NCBI GenBank assembly: GCA_963804165.1
Contig: CAWDPO010000012.1
Location: 18,604 to 82,603, forward strand
DNA from: an uncultured delta proteobacterium
GTDB taxonomy: Bacteria; Desulfobacterota; Binatia; UBA9968
Reading direction: 5' to 3'
Length of the DNA stretch: 64,000 nucleotides
The notes under the pieces are model-generated. The model ran no database searches, was not told where the DNA came from, and saw only the letters and a list, made by a program, of their open reading frames with translations. Positions 7,289 through 38,094 of this stretch are shown in pieces. Both the position numbers and the translations under genes were made by a program. The stretch's first letter is position 1, and each line of letters opens with the position of its first letter.

Positions 7289-7648
7289 TCAGCCTCTTGG
7301 ATTTCGGCCCGTCCTAACGCGTCCCGGCTGGACGACTGTAAAAGTTCCGACAAGCCGTTCTCCTCGTTGTCTCACGAGATCGAGTACGGCTACCGCAAGA
7401 TAACGCCGCGCACGCGCCGGAAACCGAATGAAAATTACCCCGCCCGTTCTCCTCATACTCGCATAAACCAACTGACCGAAGTCCTTATCCTCCGTAATCA
7501 AGATCCGCTTATCGCTAACCGCTCGTTCTCTAACGTCGTCGTCCTCCGCACGAGGCGACACTTCAGCGATTGCGACAACATCATGCTTCGCGGAACGAAG
7601 CGCTCGCACCACCGAGAAGTCGCAACTTTCATCGGCCAGAAAGCGCAT
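7289..7648 (-). CDS. DUF5615 PIN-like toxin (VapC45-type)
   Basis: MRFLADES, HDVV, DDDV...A...RILITEDKDFG; directly downstream of a DUF433 gene. Confidence 0.9.
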   Translation of the reverse strand: MRFLADESCDFSVVRALRSAKHDVVAIAEVSPRAEDDDVRERAVSDKRILITEDKDFGQLVYASMRRTGGVIFIRFPARARRYLAVAVLDLVRQRGERLVGTFTVVQPGRVRTGRNPRG

Positions 7649-7651
7649 CGA

Positions 7652-7903
7652 TCATCGTTTCGCGCGCTTTTTCGGCGGCGTCACAATAATGGTCTCTTCG
7701 TGCGCCAAAGTGTCGGCAGCATAGCCGATGGCTGCGTGAATATCCTCTGCCTTGAGACGAGGATAGGCGTCTAGCAAATCGTCGCTGGTAGCACCTTCAC
7801 TGAGCTTCCGCAGAATCAATTCAATGGGGATGCGAGTCCCCTTGATCACGGGCTTTCCCATCATTACTTTTGGATTGATTTCTATACGGTCCGTAATTGT
7901 CAT
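7652..7903 (-). CDS. DUF433 antitoxin (VapB45-type)
   Basis: RIEINPKVMMGKPVIKGTRIPIELIL..LSEG.T..DLLDAYP.L..EDI.AAI.YA; AGGAG RBS before ATG 7903. Confidence 0.92.
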   Translation of the reverse strand: MTITDRIEINPKVMMGKPVIKGTRIPIELILRKLSEGATSDDLLDAYPRLKAEDIHAAIGYAADTLAHEETIIVTPPKKRAKR

Positions 7904-7965
7904 ACTGTCAATCTCCTGCTTTTTTGACGACATTTTCTTTTCGCTAGAGTCATTTTCGAGTAACT

Positions 7966-8139
7966 CTCCTAGTAGCATTGCGTCAGCAGCCGCTTCTCTT
8001 CACTCTCCTTAGGGTACAATGCCGACAGCGCGTTTGCCAAACGAAGGAAATCCCGCCCGCGACCCTGGTCAGCGTTGAGCAAAGCTCTCAATCCATTCGT
8101 CCTACCACTAGCATGCAGGAGCATCGCAGCGTTCACGTT
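7966..8139 (-). pseudogene. 3' relic of a DUF1156-type DNA methyltransferase gene
   Basis: AAMLLHASGRTNGLRALL...RGRDFLRLANALSALYPKESEEKRLL/(frameshift)DAMLL resembles the DUF1156 C-terminus as I recall it; the 5' part is replaced by a TTGAAC repeat mosaic. Confidence 0.55.
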
Positions 8140-8433
8140 AAAATCTTTAATCTTGAAGCTTCGAACTGAGCTCCGCTTTGAACGATTTGAACGGACCCCG
8201 GACCAAATCCGGGGCATTGAACGGCTTGATCGGAGTGAAACGGTTGAACGTGTTTTATTTTACTATTGTCTCATGCCTTATGAGTATTGGGTCGAGCGCT
8301 TCCCGGTAAACGGAAAACCGTCGTTAATTCATTTCCGTCTCGAGATTGTCAGAAATGAAAGTCTGAACATCCCGCTGAAAATTTCAAGCGGATGGAGCCG
8401 ATTTTTCGGTATTCTGCTCGTAGACTTTCGACT

Positions 8434-9717
8434 TTAAGACTTCGCCGAGAGTTTCGGCCTCCGTATTTGCGTTTTAACGAACGCTCTCGATTTGACCTTG
8501 GCCTTGGTATTCCCTTTTTCGGGGCGTATCTGGTACTCGCGTTCTTCGGTGAGCATTTTGTAAATGATCCGGGACAAGTGCCGACCTAGAGCTCGAATCG
8601 CCTGGTTGTGTTTCTTTCCCTCGCTGCGCTTCTTTTCATAGTATCTTTGCGACTCCGGCACGTACTTTCGATGCCGATCCAAGGCGATCATCATCGCTGC
8701 CTTGGCGCGAGTGTTCACGTGCTTGGGTGCTTTAGTTCCCTGATACTTCCCCGAGCTGTTGTCCAACGTGGACATGCCGAGATACAACGAAATACTTCCT
8801 TCGGAGGCAAACCGCTCAATGGTTCCAATCTCTCCGGCCAACTCTGAAGTACACACGGCACCAAACCCTGGAATCGATCGTAAAATCTTGGCGATCTTGG
8901 AGTTCTTAGCAACCTCGGCGATCTTGGTTTCCAACCGTTTGATCTTTTCATCGAGTTCGAGACACCGCTTGGCATCTTCTTGGATCATCTCGCCGACCCA
9001 CTTAACCTCTTGGCTAAAATGGGCACGCTTCTGCCAGGCCTCGATAGTGGCAGCACACTTCACTCCCACCGAGGGGATCTTCAGCACTGTGCTGCGCCGT
9101 AACCGGGCCAGCTGAGGCAGGGTGTCCGCGCTGAGAAGAAAATTTAAAAACCACTGATTGCTCGCTTCTCCAGTGATCTCTAACAAACCAGGACACACCG
9201 CTTGCAGATCGGCCTGTAGACTGTTCACCACTCGCACCCGCTCGTTGACTAATCGTCGCCGGCGCCGCGTTAATCGTTTGAGGACTTCATTCTCGGGCGG
9301 TGTCCCAGTGACTTCCTGAAGCACTTCTTTGGCCAACGGCAGATGATCGCTCAACTGAAACAGCTCCAATCCCTTGCGCGCATCGATACGGTCACTTTTG
9401 GCGGCTGCGGGAAAGATCTCCTTGAACCGGGCAAACTTTAAGTTATTGAGATTATAAAGCCGGTAGCCCCGTTGACGGACCATGCTATCCAGTGGCCGCG
9501 CGTAGCCGTTGTAACCTTCCATGGCTACGGCTACCGGACAGTTCCTTGTCTTACGTTGCCTCTCGATACGAGAAAAGAACTCTTGAAAACCCTCGATCCG
9601 GTGATCGACTTCGAACTCTTCGAGCACCTCGCCGCTGGATAACCCCATCGCTACACTGTGACGACGGTATCCCACGTCCACACTGACTCTCAGTTCTAAA
9701 GGCTTTTCTTCTGACAC
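8434..9717 (-). CDS. IS110 family DEDD recombinase/transposase
   Basis: VSVDVG, VAMEG, KSDRIDA (RuvC-like DEDD), SIPGFG, DNSSGK (catalytic Ser region), Y....EGKKHNQAIRALGRHL; GTG start with GGAGG RBS. Confidence 0.95.
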   Translation of the reverse strand: MSEEKPLELRVSVDVGYRRHSVAMGLSSGEVLEEFEVDHRIEGFQEFFSRIERQRKTRNCPVAVAMEGYNGYARPLDSMVRQRGYRLYNLNNLKFARFKEIFPAAAKSDRIDARKGLELFQLSDHLPLAKEVLQEVTGTPPENEVLKRLTRRRRRLVNERVRVVNSLQADLQAVCPGLLEITGEASNQWFLNFLLSADTLPQLARLRRSTVLKIPSVGVKCAATIEAWQKRAHFSQEVKWVGEMIQEDAKRCLELDEKIKRLETKIAEVAKNSKIAKILRSIPGFGAVCTSELAGEIGTIERFASEGSISLYLGMSTLDNSSGKYQGTKAPKHVNTRAKAAMMIALDRHRKYVPESQRYYEKKRSEGKKHNQAIRALGRHLSRIIYKMLTEEREYQIRPEKGNTKAKVKSRAFVKTQIRRPKLSAKS

Positions 9718-9745
9718 GTAGCTCCTCCTTCGTAGATCGAGTTTT

Positions 9746-9910
9746 CATCATCCTTCGGTCTCGTCTACTTACAGAGCCACGTATTCTGGTAAGAGAATAT
9801 GGCACCATCCCGGTCGACCCTCGGATGATGCAGGTGACGAGGGCGGCATTTCAGACTGGGTGAGCCTGAATGAACAGGCCACTGACCCCAAGAGCCACAC
9901 CCTCGTCAAG
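9746..9910 (-). ncRNA. predicted IS110 bridge RNA (target-binding loop then donor-binding loop)
   Basis: Two stem/internal-loop/hairpin domains: TGACGAGGG/CCCTCGTCA with GCCTG/CAGGC cap, and CATCATCC/GGATGATG with GCCA-TATTCT/AGAATA-TGGC cap; loop strands match element ends and flanks. Confidence 0.8.
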
Positions 9911-10065
9911 AATTTCTTTACAGGATTCTTTTAGATCCTGCTACCTGCTAAATTCCGATGGTAGACCTCGCTTTTCCGTGTCCGATGGGTTTTGTGCTAG
10001 GTTGTTTGTCGAACAAGAAGTTATTTTTCCACGGTCAGCATTGACGTAATGCAAAGGAGGTTTTC

Positions 10066-10500
10066 ATGGCAACATTCAAAATCGAAGGTGTTACTCACTG
10101 GTCGATTCCCGTCAACAACTTAAAGGCTTCCGAAGATTTCTACGGCGGGCTGCTCGGGCTCAAACCGGTCGGGCGCCTCAGCAATAACGTGATGTCCTGC
10201 TTTAATGTCGGCGATCATAACATCCTTTTGTGCGAGCGGGAGAAACCGCAGGATAGAACCATCGTCGAAGATCGCGTGCATCATTCCTTCACGGTAAGCT
10301 CCGAAGGGTTCGTGCAGGCTTGCAAGACGCTTCACGAAAAGAAGATTCCCATCGTCGAGCTGGAATACCGCGGCAAGGGCTATTTCACCGGACGAGAGCT
10401 CTACTTTTACGATCCCAGCGGGAACCGTCTCGAGATCCGCGACCCAAGCTGGAAGAAGGGAATGCCGGAACCGCCCTATGAAGAGATCGTAAAGTCGTAG
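10066..10500 (+). CDS. VOC (glyoxalase/bleomycin resistance) family protein
   Basis: VTHWSIPV..L..SEDFY..LLGL, HHSF, LYFYDPSGNRLEI; AAGGAGG RBS. Confidence 0.9.
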   Translation: MATFKIEGVTHWSIPVNNLKASEDFYGGLLGLKPVGRLSNNVMSCFNVGDHNILLCEREKPQDRTIVEDRVHHSFTVSSEGFVQACKTLHEKKIPIVELEYRGKGYFTGRELYFYDPSGNRLEIRDPSWKKGMPEPPYEEIVKS

Positions 10501-10611
10501 GTCTACGACGACACGGCTTGCTTGGACGAAGCCCGCTGAATGGAGAGCGTCTTAAGCTGACCGGTAGCGTGATAATGTTTTCCAGAAACCGCGGTTTACC
10601 CGGAAAACGAT

Positions 10612-10725
10612 CGGAACGTGTGAAACGGTTGGAACACGCTTCGCTCTGACTTTGAACATTGAACCTTGAACTTTGAACGAGGTTGATCAGTTAACGTCTT
10701 GAACCGAGTGAAACGGTCGAACGAG
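10612..10725 (+). repeat. TTGAAC/TGGAAC tandem-repeat mosaic
   Basis: GGAACGTGTGAAACGGTTGGAACACGCTTCGCTCTGACTTTGAACATTGAACCTTGAACTTTGAACGA is repeated identically near 27260-27328. Confidence 0.85.
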
Positions 10726-10727
10726 TT

Positions 10728-11969
10728 CTATTTTACTGGGGTGACGGTTTCTTTTACGGAAAAAGCCAATAGCATTGCGGTGGCGAGCGAGCACAAACCG
10801 ATCATCGCGAATGAAACCGTGTAGCCCATATGCTCGGCGACAAAGCCGAATAGCGCCGGGCTGACCATGCCACCGATCTCGCCGATCAAGCGCCAGAAAC
10901 CGAAGAACCGCCCGCGCGCATGGGCCGGCGCCATGTCCGAGCCGAGCACCTGCATGCTTCCCGCTGTAACCGCTTGGCTGGCATGCATCCAGAGAAAAGC
11001 GCCGACAAAAATCGCCAGGCCCCAATGCCACTGAGCGTTCGCCGCGAGAAAAAATAATCCCAACGCCATGGACACAAAGCCGGGCACCATCGTGGTCTTG
11101 CGTCCGAAGCGGTCCATTAGATAGCCGCACGATAGGGTGATCGGGATGCCGACGACCGTGCTCATGGTCGCCAAGCCGCCCAACCCGCGCGCCCCGACAT
11201 CGTAAGTAAAGGTTGCGTACAACAGCAGTGTGCCGCCCCAGAGCACGCCGCGAGTCATCGATGCGAAGAACTGGGCGCAGAGAAAACCGCGGTACCTGTC
11301 GTCGAGCATCAAGGCTACCAAGGCTTTGGTGTCGAGCTGATCTTCGGTTTTTTTGCCGGCGCTCTTCGCTCCGGCCGGTGCCGATTCGCGGACGAGAAAA
11401 AAACTTGGCACGATGGCCAACAGCGCGAGAACGCCGTGGGCGACGAACGGCAGCCGGATACTCCACGCGGCCAGCAATCCGCCGAGCGCGGGGCCGATCA
11501 GCCGGCCGGCTCCCTCGGTGCCGATCATGCCGCTCATCTGCCGGCCGCGCTGCCGGCGCTTGCCGACATCGGCGATGATCGCGAGCCTGGACTGACGCCA
11601 CATTTCCATGGCCGCGCCGCCGATCAAGCGATAGATCAAAAGCTCGCCGAACGAGTGCGCCACGGCGATGAGACAAGACGACACCGCCACGAGCACCGGC
11701 CCGGCGATGAGAATCGGGCGGCGGCCCATGCGATCGACGAGAAAGCCGGTCGGCACGGCGGCGAGCAACGCGCCCAGGGCATGCACGACGATCACCAGGG
11801 AAGCGACGCCGAAGCCGGTGTCGAAGGATTTCGCAAATACCGGTATCGCCGGTGTTGCGATGCTGTAGCCCAGCGCAAAGACGAACGCCGGGAAATACAG
11901 AGTTAAAAGCTGGTAGGAAGAAAAAAAGCCGTCGTTCTCGTGCGGCTGTGAATCTTTCTGTAAAGCCAT
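10728..11969 (-). CDS. MFS transporter
   Basis: 413 aa, about 12 hydrophobic segments, motif A in both halves (GFLVDRMGRR, GYLMDRFGRK). Confidence 0.93.
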   Translation of the reverse strand: MALQKDSQPHENDGFFSSYQLLTLYFPAFVFALGYSIATPAIPVFAKSFDTGFGVASLVIVVHALGALLAAVPTGFLVDRMGRRPILIAGPVLVAVSSCLIAVAHSFGELLIYRLIGGAAMEMWRQSRLAIIADVGKRRQRGRQMSGMIGTEGAGRLIGPALGGLLAAWSIRLPFVAHGVLALLAIVPSFFLVRESAPAGAKSAGKKTEDQLDTKALVALMLDDRYRGFLCAQFFASMTRGVLWGGTLLLYATFTYDVGARGLGGLATMSTVVGIPITLSCGYLMDRFGRKTTMVPGFVSMALGLFFLAANAQWHWGLAIFVGAFLWMHASQAVTAGSMQVLGSDMAPAHARGRFFGFWRLIGEIGGMVSPALFGFVAEHMGYTVSFAMIGLCSLATAMLLAFSVKETVTPVK

Positions 11970-37481: not shown

Positions 37482-38094
37482 CCGGGACAGGCCGAAGCAT
37501 GCCTCCGCACGTTTTCCCAAGCGAATACCTTTTCAGCGGTTGCTTTGGTGCCCGTTTCAAGCACTCGCGTATAGTCGCCACCTGCCGTCCATCTAGCCGA
37601 CTTTCCAACTGCTCTGACCACCGAATCTCTTCATCCACAGGTGAACGATCCACAAGCTGCCTTCTACGCGCACTCGACCATGGCCACTCGTGCACCGTCT
37701 CCGACAAGCCGGCACGGACCGGATTCTGTAAAACGTAACGTAAGGCAGTGATCAAGTGTTCATCACGCTGAACTGCAAAGCTCTTAAAGCGCCCCTGCCA
37801 AACATGTCCGCTGCTTCCATAATGTTTGTGATAACGACGCACGTGGCTCGTCAGCAGCCACTGCATGAACTGACTCAACGCGGTTTGGTGAGCAGGTTCG
37901 ACAACGAGGTGAAAGTGATTCGGCATCAGGCAGTAGGCATAGATGCTTATGGAAAATTTAGCGCAATACTTCTCCAAGTGCTCGAGGTAGGCTTTATAGT
38001 CGGCCTCGGCACGGAACGTCTGGCGTTGCTGATTGCCCCGAACTATGACGTGATAGAGACGGCCTGGCGCAAATACTCTTGGACGGCGTGCCAT
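37408..38094 (-). CDS. REP-associated tyrosine (HUH/Y1) transposase, RAYT; C-terminus probably truncated
   Basis: MARRPR...G..YHV..RGN, YCLMPNHFHL (HUH), WQGRFKS, YVLQNPVRAG, WPWSS; the tail after ~37555 runs into rlpA antisense. Confidence 0.9.
   Translation of the reverse strand: MARRPRVFAPGRLYHVIVRGNQQRQTFRAEADYKAYLEHLEKYCAKFSISIYAYCLMPNHFHLVVEPAHQTALSQFMQWLLTSHVRRYHKHYGSSGHVWQGRFKSFAVQRDEHLITALRYVLQNPVRAGLSETVHEWPWSSARRRQLVDRSPVDEEIRWSEQLESRLDGRQVATIRECLKRAPKQPLKRYSLGKTCGGMLRPVPAISSPCFCQRGPFLPQFSQQRHLP

Follow-up and report, generated by a model that had tools for sequence, protein, structure and literature searches.

The window analysed here is a stretch of 64,000 nucleotides (nt) from an uncultured delta proteobacterium (GTDB lineage Desulfobacterota; Binatia; UBA9968; NCBI assembly GCA_963804165.1, contig CAWDPO010000012.1, positions 18,604 to 82,603), and it carries on its minus strand an element of the IS110 family (8365..9965) that is 1601 bases long with TC counted at each end, or a net insert of 1599 bases since one TC belongs to the target. 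Read from 9965 to 8365, the element consists of a 248-nt non-coding left end, an open reading frame (ORF) for a recombinase of 427 amino acids (8434..9717, minus strand), whose GTG start has GGAGG 7 bases 5' of it, and a right end of 69 nt between the stop codon and the element edge. A TC dinucleotide is present at both edges, and by-eye inspection of the ends found no inverted repeats. The left TC (9964..9965) is followed by TACCAT (9958..9963), while the right end contains TTGAAA (8382..8387) and closes with CGGGATG, a T and the second TC (8365..8374). An initial annotation made from the sequence alone had claimed a decodable bridge RNA at this locus, and all of the loop, junction and promoter strings that it quoted, along with the ORF, were found in the sequence where it had placed them. 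We consider it highly probable (about 0.9) that 8365..9965 is an intact, recently mobile insertion sequence (IS) of the IS110 family, specifically of the IS110 type in which the guide RNA lies 5' of the gene.

The recombinase matches PF01548 (N-terminal DEDD, RuvC-like domain; E = 8.1e-19, residues 12-176), PF02371 (C-terminal Tnp domain; E = 4.4e-13, residues 277-361) and the NCBIfam model NF033542.1 'IS110 family RNA-guided transposase' (176.3 bits against a cut-off of 140), in agreement with the family proposed at the outset. The motifs VSVD, AMEG, KSDRIDAR and NSSGK are all present and the last three align with CIEA, KTDTVDAR and YESGS of IS621, the N-terminal part of this alignment being weak (-1.2 bits). 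The catalytic residues are most likely D14, E67, D109, D112 and S322, the serine in NSSGK aligning with the YESG serine of the IS621 chain 8wt6 (S241 in the numbering of the paper, from which the chain is offset by 2). With an open frame and its catalytic motifs in place, the 427-residue recombinase appears intact, as had been claimed. Its description as divergent was right relative to studied enzymes, given that IS621 (8wt6) is matched only in the Tnp domain (E = 8.4e-5, 25 bits) and the best plasmid-borne match has 28% identity, but it does not hold in the sense of rare: 3050 proteins among 8000 scored matched at E <= 1e-10, the best of them at 91-92% identity, the best 120 matches lie at 84-92% identity, and the protein is common in metagenomes. 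The element is thus an IS110-family member by all tested criteria. Placement in the IS621-like CT-core group was considered and rejected because of the TC core, found at 71/71 left and 67/67 right ends (see below), the confinement of the IS621 match to the Tnp domain at the E-value given above and the 28% identity of the nearest plasmid-borne relative.

Other copies of the element allowed its ends to be placed. The host genome (7.5 Mb in 46 contigs, 81% complete) holds four matches, the window copy included. The copy on contig C26 differs at 1 of 1600 bases (window position 9193) and stops at a contig end just before its right terminus; its left junction reads GAAGGG-TC-TACCAT. A further copy (G000:C18:56482-58101) is 84% identical and decayed, with in-frame TAA, TGA and TAG stops and intact loop sequences; it is cut at its left terminus and shows the right junction GGGATGA-TC-TGACTT. 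The last is a left-end relic, a stub of ~70 nt (C40:122739-122807) next to a perfect left-target flank, with the left junction CTTGGGG-TC-AACCGT. In the window copy itself, the left junction is GCGAGG-TC-TACCAT (9971..9958) and the right junction CAGCGGGATGT-TC-AGACT (8376..8360), that is, GGGATGT-TC-AGACTT, and the halves of the split target are AGCGAGG on the left (9966..9972, minus strand) and AGACTTTCATTTCTGACAATCT, a REP-like (repetitive extragenic palindrome) repeat, on the right (8343..8364, minus strand). When 90 genomes of the taxonomic family were searched with the protein, 18 gave a match at E <= 1e-30, and blastn homology to those loci runs from query position 59/60 to 1661-1663, equivalent to window 9967/9966 to 8365-8363. 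Seventeen left-junction rows and 17 right-end rows from the family all have the same ends, GG(G/T)G-TC-TACCAT and CGG(G/A)ATG(T/A)-TC; one row per set is interrupted by a contig end, leaving 16 right ends that show the junction, and one per set comes from G041. Across a wider set, 71 loci begin with TC-TA(C/T)CAT (the left end being TCTACCAT in 66 and TCTATCAT in 5) and 67 right ends finish with AGCGGGATG(N)TC, the tails after AGCGGGATG being TTC in 55, ATC in 5, GTC in 1 and TC in 6. Automatic end-finding by all-against-all blastn was too fragmented and was replaced by these conserved end motifs together with the own-genome and family copies. Because no sequence other than TC is shared by the two ends, the sequence evidence makes TC the core. 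The comparison with other copies that the initial annotation had suggested as a check on its TC core found the same ends in the own-genome copies and in ~70 relatives.

The 248-nt left end is predicted to encode a bridge RNA with two internal loops. A short 5' stem-loop (CAGGAT..ATCCTG, 9921..9940, minus strand), taken from the minimum free energy fold and variable in sequence among relatives, is followed by a target-binding loop (9835..9908) built of a basal stem, an internal loop and an apical stem-loop, with the letters TGACGAGGG (9908..9900) .. GGC-TCTTGGGGTCAGTG-GCCTG / CAGGC-TCACCCAGTCTGAAAT-GCC .. CCCTCGTCA (9843..9835), and by a donor-binding loop (9746..9830) with the letters CATCATCC (9830..9823) .. 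GGTC-GACCGGGATGGT-GCCA .. TGGC-TCTGTAAGTAGACGA-GACC .. GGATGATG (9753..9746), all on the minus strand. Folding the leader gives -90.3 kcal/mol, where shuffled sequences give -73.1 +/- 4.7 (z = -3.67; 1/200 shuffles as good). Folding had been proposed as a check, and its outcome was divided: the single-sequence fold recovers loop 1 and draws loop 2 differently, missing part of it, so that we relied on comparative analysis. The evidence beyond chance for the two loops comes from relatives, not from the fold of one sequence.

We built a covariance model of the two loops (R1; 162 positions, 38 pairs) from an alignment of 14 close relatives (A1; 94% mean column identity) with the stems assigned manually on a single sequence. 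Scanning one genome for each species gave 80 loci encoding relatives at 50-87% identity, of which 79 were searched (L041 was left out). Among them are loci from metagenome-assembled genomes (MAGs) labelled Candidatus Binatia, the closest, and Nitrospirota, Thermodesulfobacteriota, Methylococcales, Gallionella, Chlamydiae, Flavobacteriales, Aquificota, Bacillota and others. The model found 78 full-length matches in 76 of the 79 loci, always directly 5' of the gene; in the remaining three (L035, L085, L088) the protein match begins at the locus start or no more than ~15 bases from it, so the left end falls outside the stored DNA. In the resulting alignment (A2), standard pairs occupy 95.3% of 2137 cells compared with 35-54% when partners are slid by 1-3 columns, and 30 of the 38 pairs changed on both sides (271 such cells compared with 16-43 slid). 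No shuffle out of 500 reached either the pairing or the compensation value; this result is weakened by the fitting of the alignment to the model, a procedure biased towards the structure, and the compensations come from sequences outside the model building. By helix, 96-100% of cells are paired in the target loop (A2 helices 1-3, with two-sided changes in 12 of 17 pairs) and 94-99.7% in the donor loop (A2 helices 5-7). The covariance-model check named in the initial annotation thus supports both loops.

We also identified a helix, here called P0 or the leader-linker helix, in which GCAGGT (9943..9948, minus strand), just past the predicted transcription start, pairs with ACCTGC (9830..9835, minus strand) in the linker joining the two loops. 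Relatives show changes on both sides, as in GCAGAT/ATCTGC, GTGGAT/ATCCAC, GCGAAT/ATTCGC, GTAGGT/ACCTAC and GCAAAC/GTTTGC. With 50 distinct sequences aligned by MAFFT and fitted to no structure, we found 90.2% of 441 cells paired over a 9-pair helix (15-61% slid) and double changes in 45 cells (5-20 slid), with a covariation score that 0/500 shuffles reached; the count of further pair types was not exceptional, as 87/500 shuffles reach the same. In many relatives P0 is lengthened by GAC/GTC and then uses the GTCA of the target-loop basal stem, and since both helices use the same letters they would compete. One Burkholderiales MAG contig (L095:669-1451) carries a head-to-tail series of three left ends, all matched by the bridge-RNA model; wherever a new TC-TACCAT begins, it truncates the prior copy, once in the gene and once in the donor-loop 3' arm. 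A tandem accumulation of non-coding units beside IS110 genes has been described (10.64898/2026.08.14.744561).

The address written in the target loop could be decoded with the rule known from IS621, in which the 5' arm is the sense of the left flank plus the core and the 3' arm complements the core plus the right flank (PMC11208160), the core being part of all four guides (PMC11208160, PMC11208158). By this rule, the 5' arm gives CTTGGGG-TC (left target guide CTTGGGGTC, 9884..9892, minus strand: seven left-target letters plus the core TC in the same sense as the target top strand) and the 3' arm, AGTCTGA (9851..9857, minus strand), has the reverse complement TC-AGACT, so that the two readings overlap exactly on TC. 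The claim of a target loop followed by a donor loop as in IS621 is borne out by this loop order and by the fit of the published arm rule. The right flank of the window copy, TC-AGACT, matches its guide at 7/7, and the left flanks of locus L065 and of the C40 stub (flank GCTTGGGGTC) fit the left guide at 9/9.

Relatives that carry other guides tend to carry other flanks. With 53 unique guide-flank pairs comprising 36 distinct right guides, right-flank positions 1-7 gave a mean of 3.81 matches compared with 2.80 +/- 0.15 when flanks were shuffled among elements, and the left flank gave 4.72 compared with 4.22 +/- 0.10, with 0/5000 shuffles as high in each case; these shuffles ignore kinship, which lessens their weight, and the fixed register scored a shifted Chlamydiae guide as a mismatch. 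Individual lineages illustrate the pattern. Loci L056-58 have the guide TC-AGAGTAAG (guide reverse complement TCAGAGTAAG) and flanks AGAGTAAG or AGAGTAAT, and in L039, L040 and L016 the guide GGCUUGA meets the flank TC-AGGTC in 3/3 via two wobbles. Loci L102-108, which are seven copies of one element in one Chlamydiae MAG, have the guide TC-GGGCCAGG (guide reverse complement TCGGGCCAGG) and flanks GGGCCTGG in 5/6 and GGGCCTAG in 1/6; their left target is CCCT, not GGGG, and their 5' arm carries GCCCTT. The covariation between loops and target or donor in homologs that had been proposed as a check was therefore found for the flanks and, as described below, for a donor letter.

Two further features of the Chlamydiae copies and one of the left flanks may be recorded here. 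The copies L102-L108 share 75-190 nt past both element ends, so their target lies within a longer repeat, and in their right end CGGGATG is followed directly by TC. Among 60 unique left flanks, 5 (L037, L039, L040, L057, L070) have 8-15 letters ending in the core TC that recur as a direct repeat 13-33 nt upstream (shuffled mean 0.05, maximum 2), and such repeats are also seen at L048, L002, L020 and L062. The repeat unit varies by locus and occurs at unoccupied sites flanking transposase genes as well (G000:C34:158399, C1:180982). Such short tandem duplications, which affect the left target whether or not the site is occupied, could conceivably be footprints of the element's activity.

The donor loop appears to hold the address of the element itself. 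Its 5' arm CGGGATG (left donor guide, 9806..9812, minus strand) is identical in sense to right-end letters 8374..8368 at 7/7, and its 3' arm GTAGA (right donor guide, 9764..9768, minus strand) complements TC-TAC of the left end at 5/5. Donor loop and element ends are nearly invariant over all sampled phyla; the third letter of the left-end donor varies together with the RNA guide (C:G in 66 and T:A in 5, 0 discordant, 71/71), and a sixth locus, L110, reads ATAGA in its RNA, with the left end shortened to TATCAT. In IS621, once strands have been exchanged, a handshake guide base-pairs at position 7 of the other DNA (PMC11208158). The letter after GUAGA in the element described here probably corresponds, by position, to that handshake guide: it is C with a target G in 64 loci and A with a target T in 7, with 0 discordant (71/71). 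In the window copy the putative handshake letters would be A9850, next after the right target guide, and C9763, next after the right donor guide and suited to target position 7 (G), both on the minus strand.

As for the nature of the target, we found that the ideal 14-mer (TTGGGGTCAGACTT) occurs exactly once in the genome against 0.05 expected, at the edge of a gene for a REP-associated tyrosine transposase (RAYT), and that sites within one mismatch number 3 against 2.2 expected. True members of the target-motif family in the genome are only a handful. A REP-like motif follows GGGGTC at four unoccupied sites (C34:158405, C34:162703, C1:180989, C2:250976) and flanks RAYT genes, and the right flank of the window copy (AGACTTTCATTTCTGACAATCT) belongs to one motif family with AGACTTCTATAAGTTGACTGTCT (RAYT genes) and AGACTTTCTATTCTTGACAATCT (C2). 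The target sites, with inverted counterparts ~1 kb away, flank a 309-codon gene on C34 (two copies) and C1, whose product combines a Y1 transposase domain with a DnaA-type helix-turn-helix and scores 82.8 bits on NF047646 'REP-associated tyrosine transposase' (cut-off 80). Further, of 53 relatives whose right flank extends for 1000 nt or more, 10 have a RAYT homolog starting or ending within 350 nt of the right end, one of these being a match of only 33 residues. A 746-nt contig from sequencing run X1 is identical to window 8359..8551 and continues into sequence resembling the far RAYT flank, the identity ending just after TC-AGACTT, and so represents one more insertion of the same element. 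These sequence comparisons identify the natural target as a REP-like repeat, which is likewise found beside RAYT genes. The genome holds ~15 homologs of the 309-residue RAYT with its DnaA-type C-terminal helix-turn-helix; the near-identical copies (G000:C34:158457-159383, C34:162755-163681, C1:180011-180937) are flanked by inverted GGGGTCAGACTTCTA.. repeats, and a partial homolog lies in the window at ~37672..38094 (C12:56275-56697; residues 1-140, 48% identity), distant from the IS.

A promoter appears to be divided between the two ends. TTGAAA stands at 8387..8382, 17 letters follow to 8365, and joining the right end to the left end would place TACCAT (9963..9958) next, making a sigma-70-like promoter, TTGAAA-17-TACCAT, in which TTGAAA would serve as -35 hexamer and TACCAT, besides supplying the right-donor letters, as the -10 hexamer of a promoter that exists only once the ends are joined. 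The integrated copy has no -35-like hexamer upstream of TACCAT. Among 48 distinct right ends, the hexamer 17 letters from the end is TTGAAA in 36, TTGCAA in 7, TTCCAA in 2 and TTCAAA, TTGATA and TTGACA in one each, so that all 48 are TTGACA-like, and the left end is TC-TACCAT or TC-TATCAT in 71/71 loci. The geometry of the junction promoter described in the initial annotation is present, and its -35-like hexamer is conserved. Promoters split over the right and left ends have been reported for IS621 and for earlier IS110 members (PMC11208160).

Taken together, and by analogy with IS621, we hypothesize that the element excises as a circle, that joining of its right end to its left end creates the promoter TTGAAA-17-TACCAT, and that this promoter would transcribe ~210 nt of the left end into the bridge RNA. 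The first internal loop would then specify the target site TTGGGG-TC-AGACT, and the second, through CGGGAUG and GUAGA, would hold the element's own junction CGGGATG-T-TC-TAC. A9850 and C9763, one letter past each 3' guide, would fit position 7 of the other DNA, and the DEDD/Ser recombinase would exchange strands at the two-base TC core. Family membership, the ends with their TC core, the RNA structure, the guide covariation, the conservation of the split promoter and the nature of the target can be read directly from the sequences compared; transcription, circle formation, RNA binding, the cleavage position and present-day activity are what the analogy would lead one to expect.

Several results weigh against this interpretation. 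We found no orthologous empty site among 31 genus genomes, 30 of which conserve the left flank; in the closest (95% identity) the similarity ends 15 nt short of the insertion point, and the 1.3 kb of window sequence that come next are missing, including the REP-like site, an ORF of 82 codons and a DUF433/DUF5615 gene pair. The left flank of the window copy, AGCGAGG, has 3/7 identity with the left guide, or 5/7 when rG:dT and rU:dG wobbles are allowed. CGGGATG is invariant in the guide and the right ends of all listed loci, which is conservation without covariation, and because loop and ends are almost invariant the support for the 5' donor arm is of that kind. Of T-TC, the final letters of the left donor guide (G, U, stem G) match the first core letter and no other; in IS621, the donor 5' guide has one pair fewer than the target guide (PMC11208158). 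The T:A class of the donor letter consists of 5 related loci, and hence few events, and the A:T class of the handshake letter of the 7 Chlamydiae copies, a single event. Sites within two mismatches of the ideal 14-mer are not enriched in the genome (35 seen, 45 expected), shuffles fold as well as the REP-like imperfect palindrome GTCAGACTT..AAGTTGAC, and an Rfam scan of 7500..10800 returned no family, only two chance matches at E ~9, Rfam 15 appearing to have no bridge-RNA model.

Given these points, we weighed other explanations of the locus. One concerns only the register: a GT core would give the ends GAG-GT-CTACCAT and GGGAT-GT-TCAGACT and a 16-nt promoter spacer, and the initial annotation had kept this possibility beside TC; GT does occur at both junctions, one base leftward, in the window copy alone. 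Right ends of the forms ATC (5), GTC (1) and G-TC (6) besides TTC (55) have TC in 67/67, the 84% identical copy on C18 closes with GGGATGATC, and both target guides overlap on TC. Unoccupied paralogous sites in the same genome read GGGGTCAGACTT, whereas a GT register would predict GGGTTCAGACT. Right ends without GT and these unoccupied sites led us to reject the GT register, which we regard as hardly credible; of the two registers initially offered, TC stands and GT falls. A different objection accepts the bridge-RNA anatomy and supposes that the window copy is a dead relic that is no longer mobile. The search for the circle junction recommended in the initial annotation gave this view some support, in that four (X1, X2, X5, X20) of 23 listed public runs, all of them available as assembled contigs, contained no right-to-left-end joint and no contig skipping the element; the sole joint seen there skips 89 bases within the gene, in one contig. 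The poor left-flank fit points the same way, as does the presence in this genome of a decayed, stop-containing copy and a left-end stub. Against it stand a second copy at a separate site differing at 1/1600 bases, an open frame with catalytic motifs in place, every stem and guide identical to or compensated relative to those of relatives, and, in run X1, an identical right end joined to a third flank. We therefore consider it improbable that the copy is dead. In both DNA run X5 and RNA-library run X20 the depth is highest over the RNA region, a pattern that reflects conservation among relatives and says nothing on expression.

Another proposal is that the stem-loops are a structured 5' leader, for recombinase binding or translation control, and that the matches between loops and flanks arise from a preference of the protein for GGGGTC-type repeats. 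Shared ancestry could explain the fit wherever there is little variation, and the left guide, the donor loop, the left target GGGG and the donor ends are indeed near-invariant across phyla; the window copy's left flank is again a poor fit. Where the RNA does vary, however, the DNA varies with it: the right flank follows the varied 3' arm of loop 1 over its 36 distinct guides, the lineage with the CCCT left target differs both in its 5' arm (GCCCTT) and in its handshake letter, and where the donor has T for C the RNA has A for G. Moreover, the same arm-to-strand rule was demonstrated experimentally for IS621 (PMC11208160, PMC11208158). A leader without guide function is in our view very unlikely, and an intact, recently mobile IS110 element with a bridge RNA remains the preferred interpretation.

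Just past the right flank of the element lie genes for a DUF433 protein (108 residues) and then a DUF5615/PIN-like protein (119 residues; together window 7289..7978, minus strand), a pair with a toxin-antitoxin-like look. Adjoining the left flank is a gene for a VOC/glyoxalase-family protein of 144 residues (10066..10500, plus strand); we considered this as a fosfomycin-resistance gene and discarded the idea, its model matches being far under the cut-off (42 bits compared with 180).

What does such an element add? It is a genuine but fairly ordinary IS110 element, unusual mainly in having TC instead of CT as its recombination site; knowledge of this class and of its logic dates from 2024, and the known mechanism is unchanged. 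The TC core, the donor and left guides that are near-fixed across phyla, and the extra helix are points that specialists might follow. Tentatively, and aware that the balance of probability lies against us, we suggest that the window copy belongs to an IS110 lineage, spread across many phyla and mostly uncultured, that resembles IS621 in its working but departs from it in a TC core, near-frozen donor and left-target guides and a covarying leader-linker helix, three traits that we did not meet in the literature available to us. If this were true, a C at the T position would imply another mode of core reading and offer an orthogonal core for bridge-recombinase engineering; guides aimed at the GGGGTC edge of the RAYT-associated REP, with the right guide alone drifting, would make the lineage a specialised hitch-hiker; and competition between P0 and the basal stem in many members would allow a conformational switch of the guide RNA. 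More generally, the case shows that raw sequence suffices to read the target, donor, core and split promoter of a bridge RNA correctly, with natural relatives supplying the covariation that confirms it. Of practical value is a natural bridge system distant from IS621, with a TC core and a 7-base right target guide, and with dozens of naturally reprogrammed relatives for comparison, as raw material to widen the sequences that bridge recombinases can address. It also adds a case of an IS110-type element homing on RAYT/REP repeats across many phyla.

Comparison with described systems places the element more precisely. The IS1111 type (PMC11187229) resembles the element in its DEDD transposase; its seekRNA guides the choice of target, it passes through a circular intermediate and it has a promoter at the junction, all of which are predicted for the element here too; as described there, however, its non-coding region usually lies 3' of the gene, with the target-matching regions reversed in order, and it has subterminal inverted repeats, whereas the RNA here is 5' of the gene and no such repeats were seen by eye. 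We rejected membership of the IS1111 type on the upstream position of the RNA and the mere 69 nt between stop codon and right end. ISPpu9 and ISPpu10 of Pseudomonas putida (PMC12288879, 10.64898/2026.03.19.712850) also belong to the IS110 family and have REP or conserved intergenic repeats as their insertion sites; their hosts and target sequences are others, and we liken them to our element by description alone. ISCro4/IS622, the bridge recombinase used in human cells (10.1101/2025.05.14.653916; PDB 9t56), follows the same two-loop and handshake logic but has a CT core, and its protein is matched at only E = 5.4e-4 (22.5 bits). In the bridge-recombinase literature as available to us, the cores are CT in nature and AT, GT and TT by engineering (PMC11208158, PMC11187229 and 10.1101/2025.05.14.653916 among the sources). 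A literature search for IS110 elements with a TC core found nothing; the supplementary element tables of Durrant 2024, which lay outside that search, may already list the lineage.

The closest parallel in design is IS621 of E. coli (PMC11208160, PMC11208158), and as far as sequence can tell the element works in the same way. The second core letter in IS621 and its near relatives is an almost invariant T contacted by the protein (PMC11208158), where the element here has C. Its right target guide covers the core plus 5 letters compared with the core plus 2 in IS621, and its protein of 427 residues is barely alignable with the 328 of the solved IS621 chain (2-residue numbering offset). Helix P0 is extra here and absent from the IS621 descriptions that we met in the literature. 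On the other hand, both elements present the same layout of 5' stem-loop, target loop, donor loop and DEDD/Tnp recombinase, and the same arm rule, with 5' arms that read like the left half together with the core and 3' arms complementing the core plus right half. Both likewise have a two-base core at each end and a REP-type target, and one handshake letter per 3' guide and a promoter split between right and left ends, as in IS621, are predicted from the sequence of the element described here.

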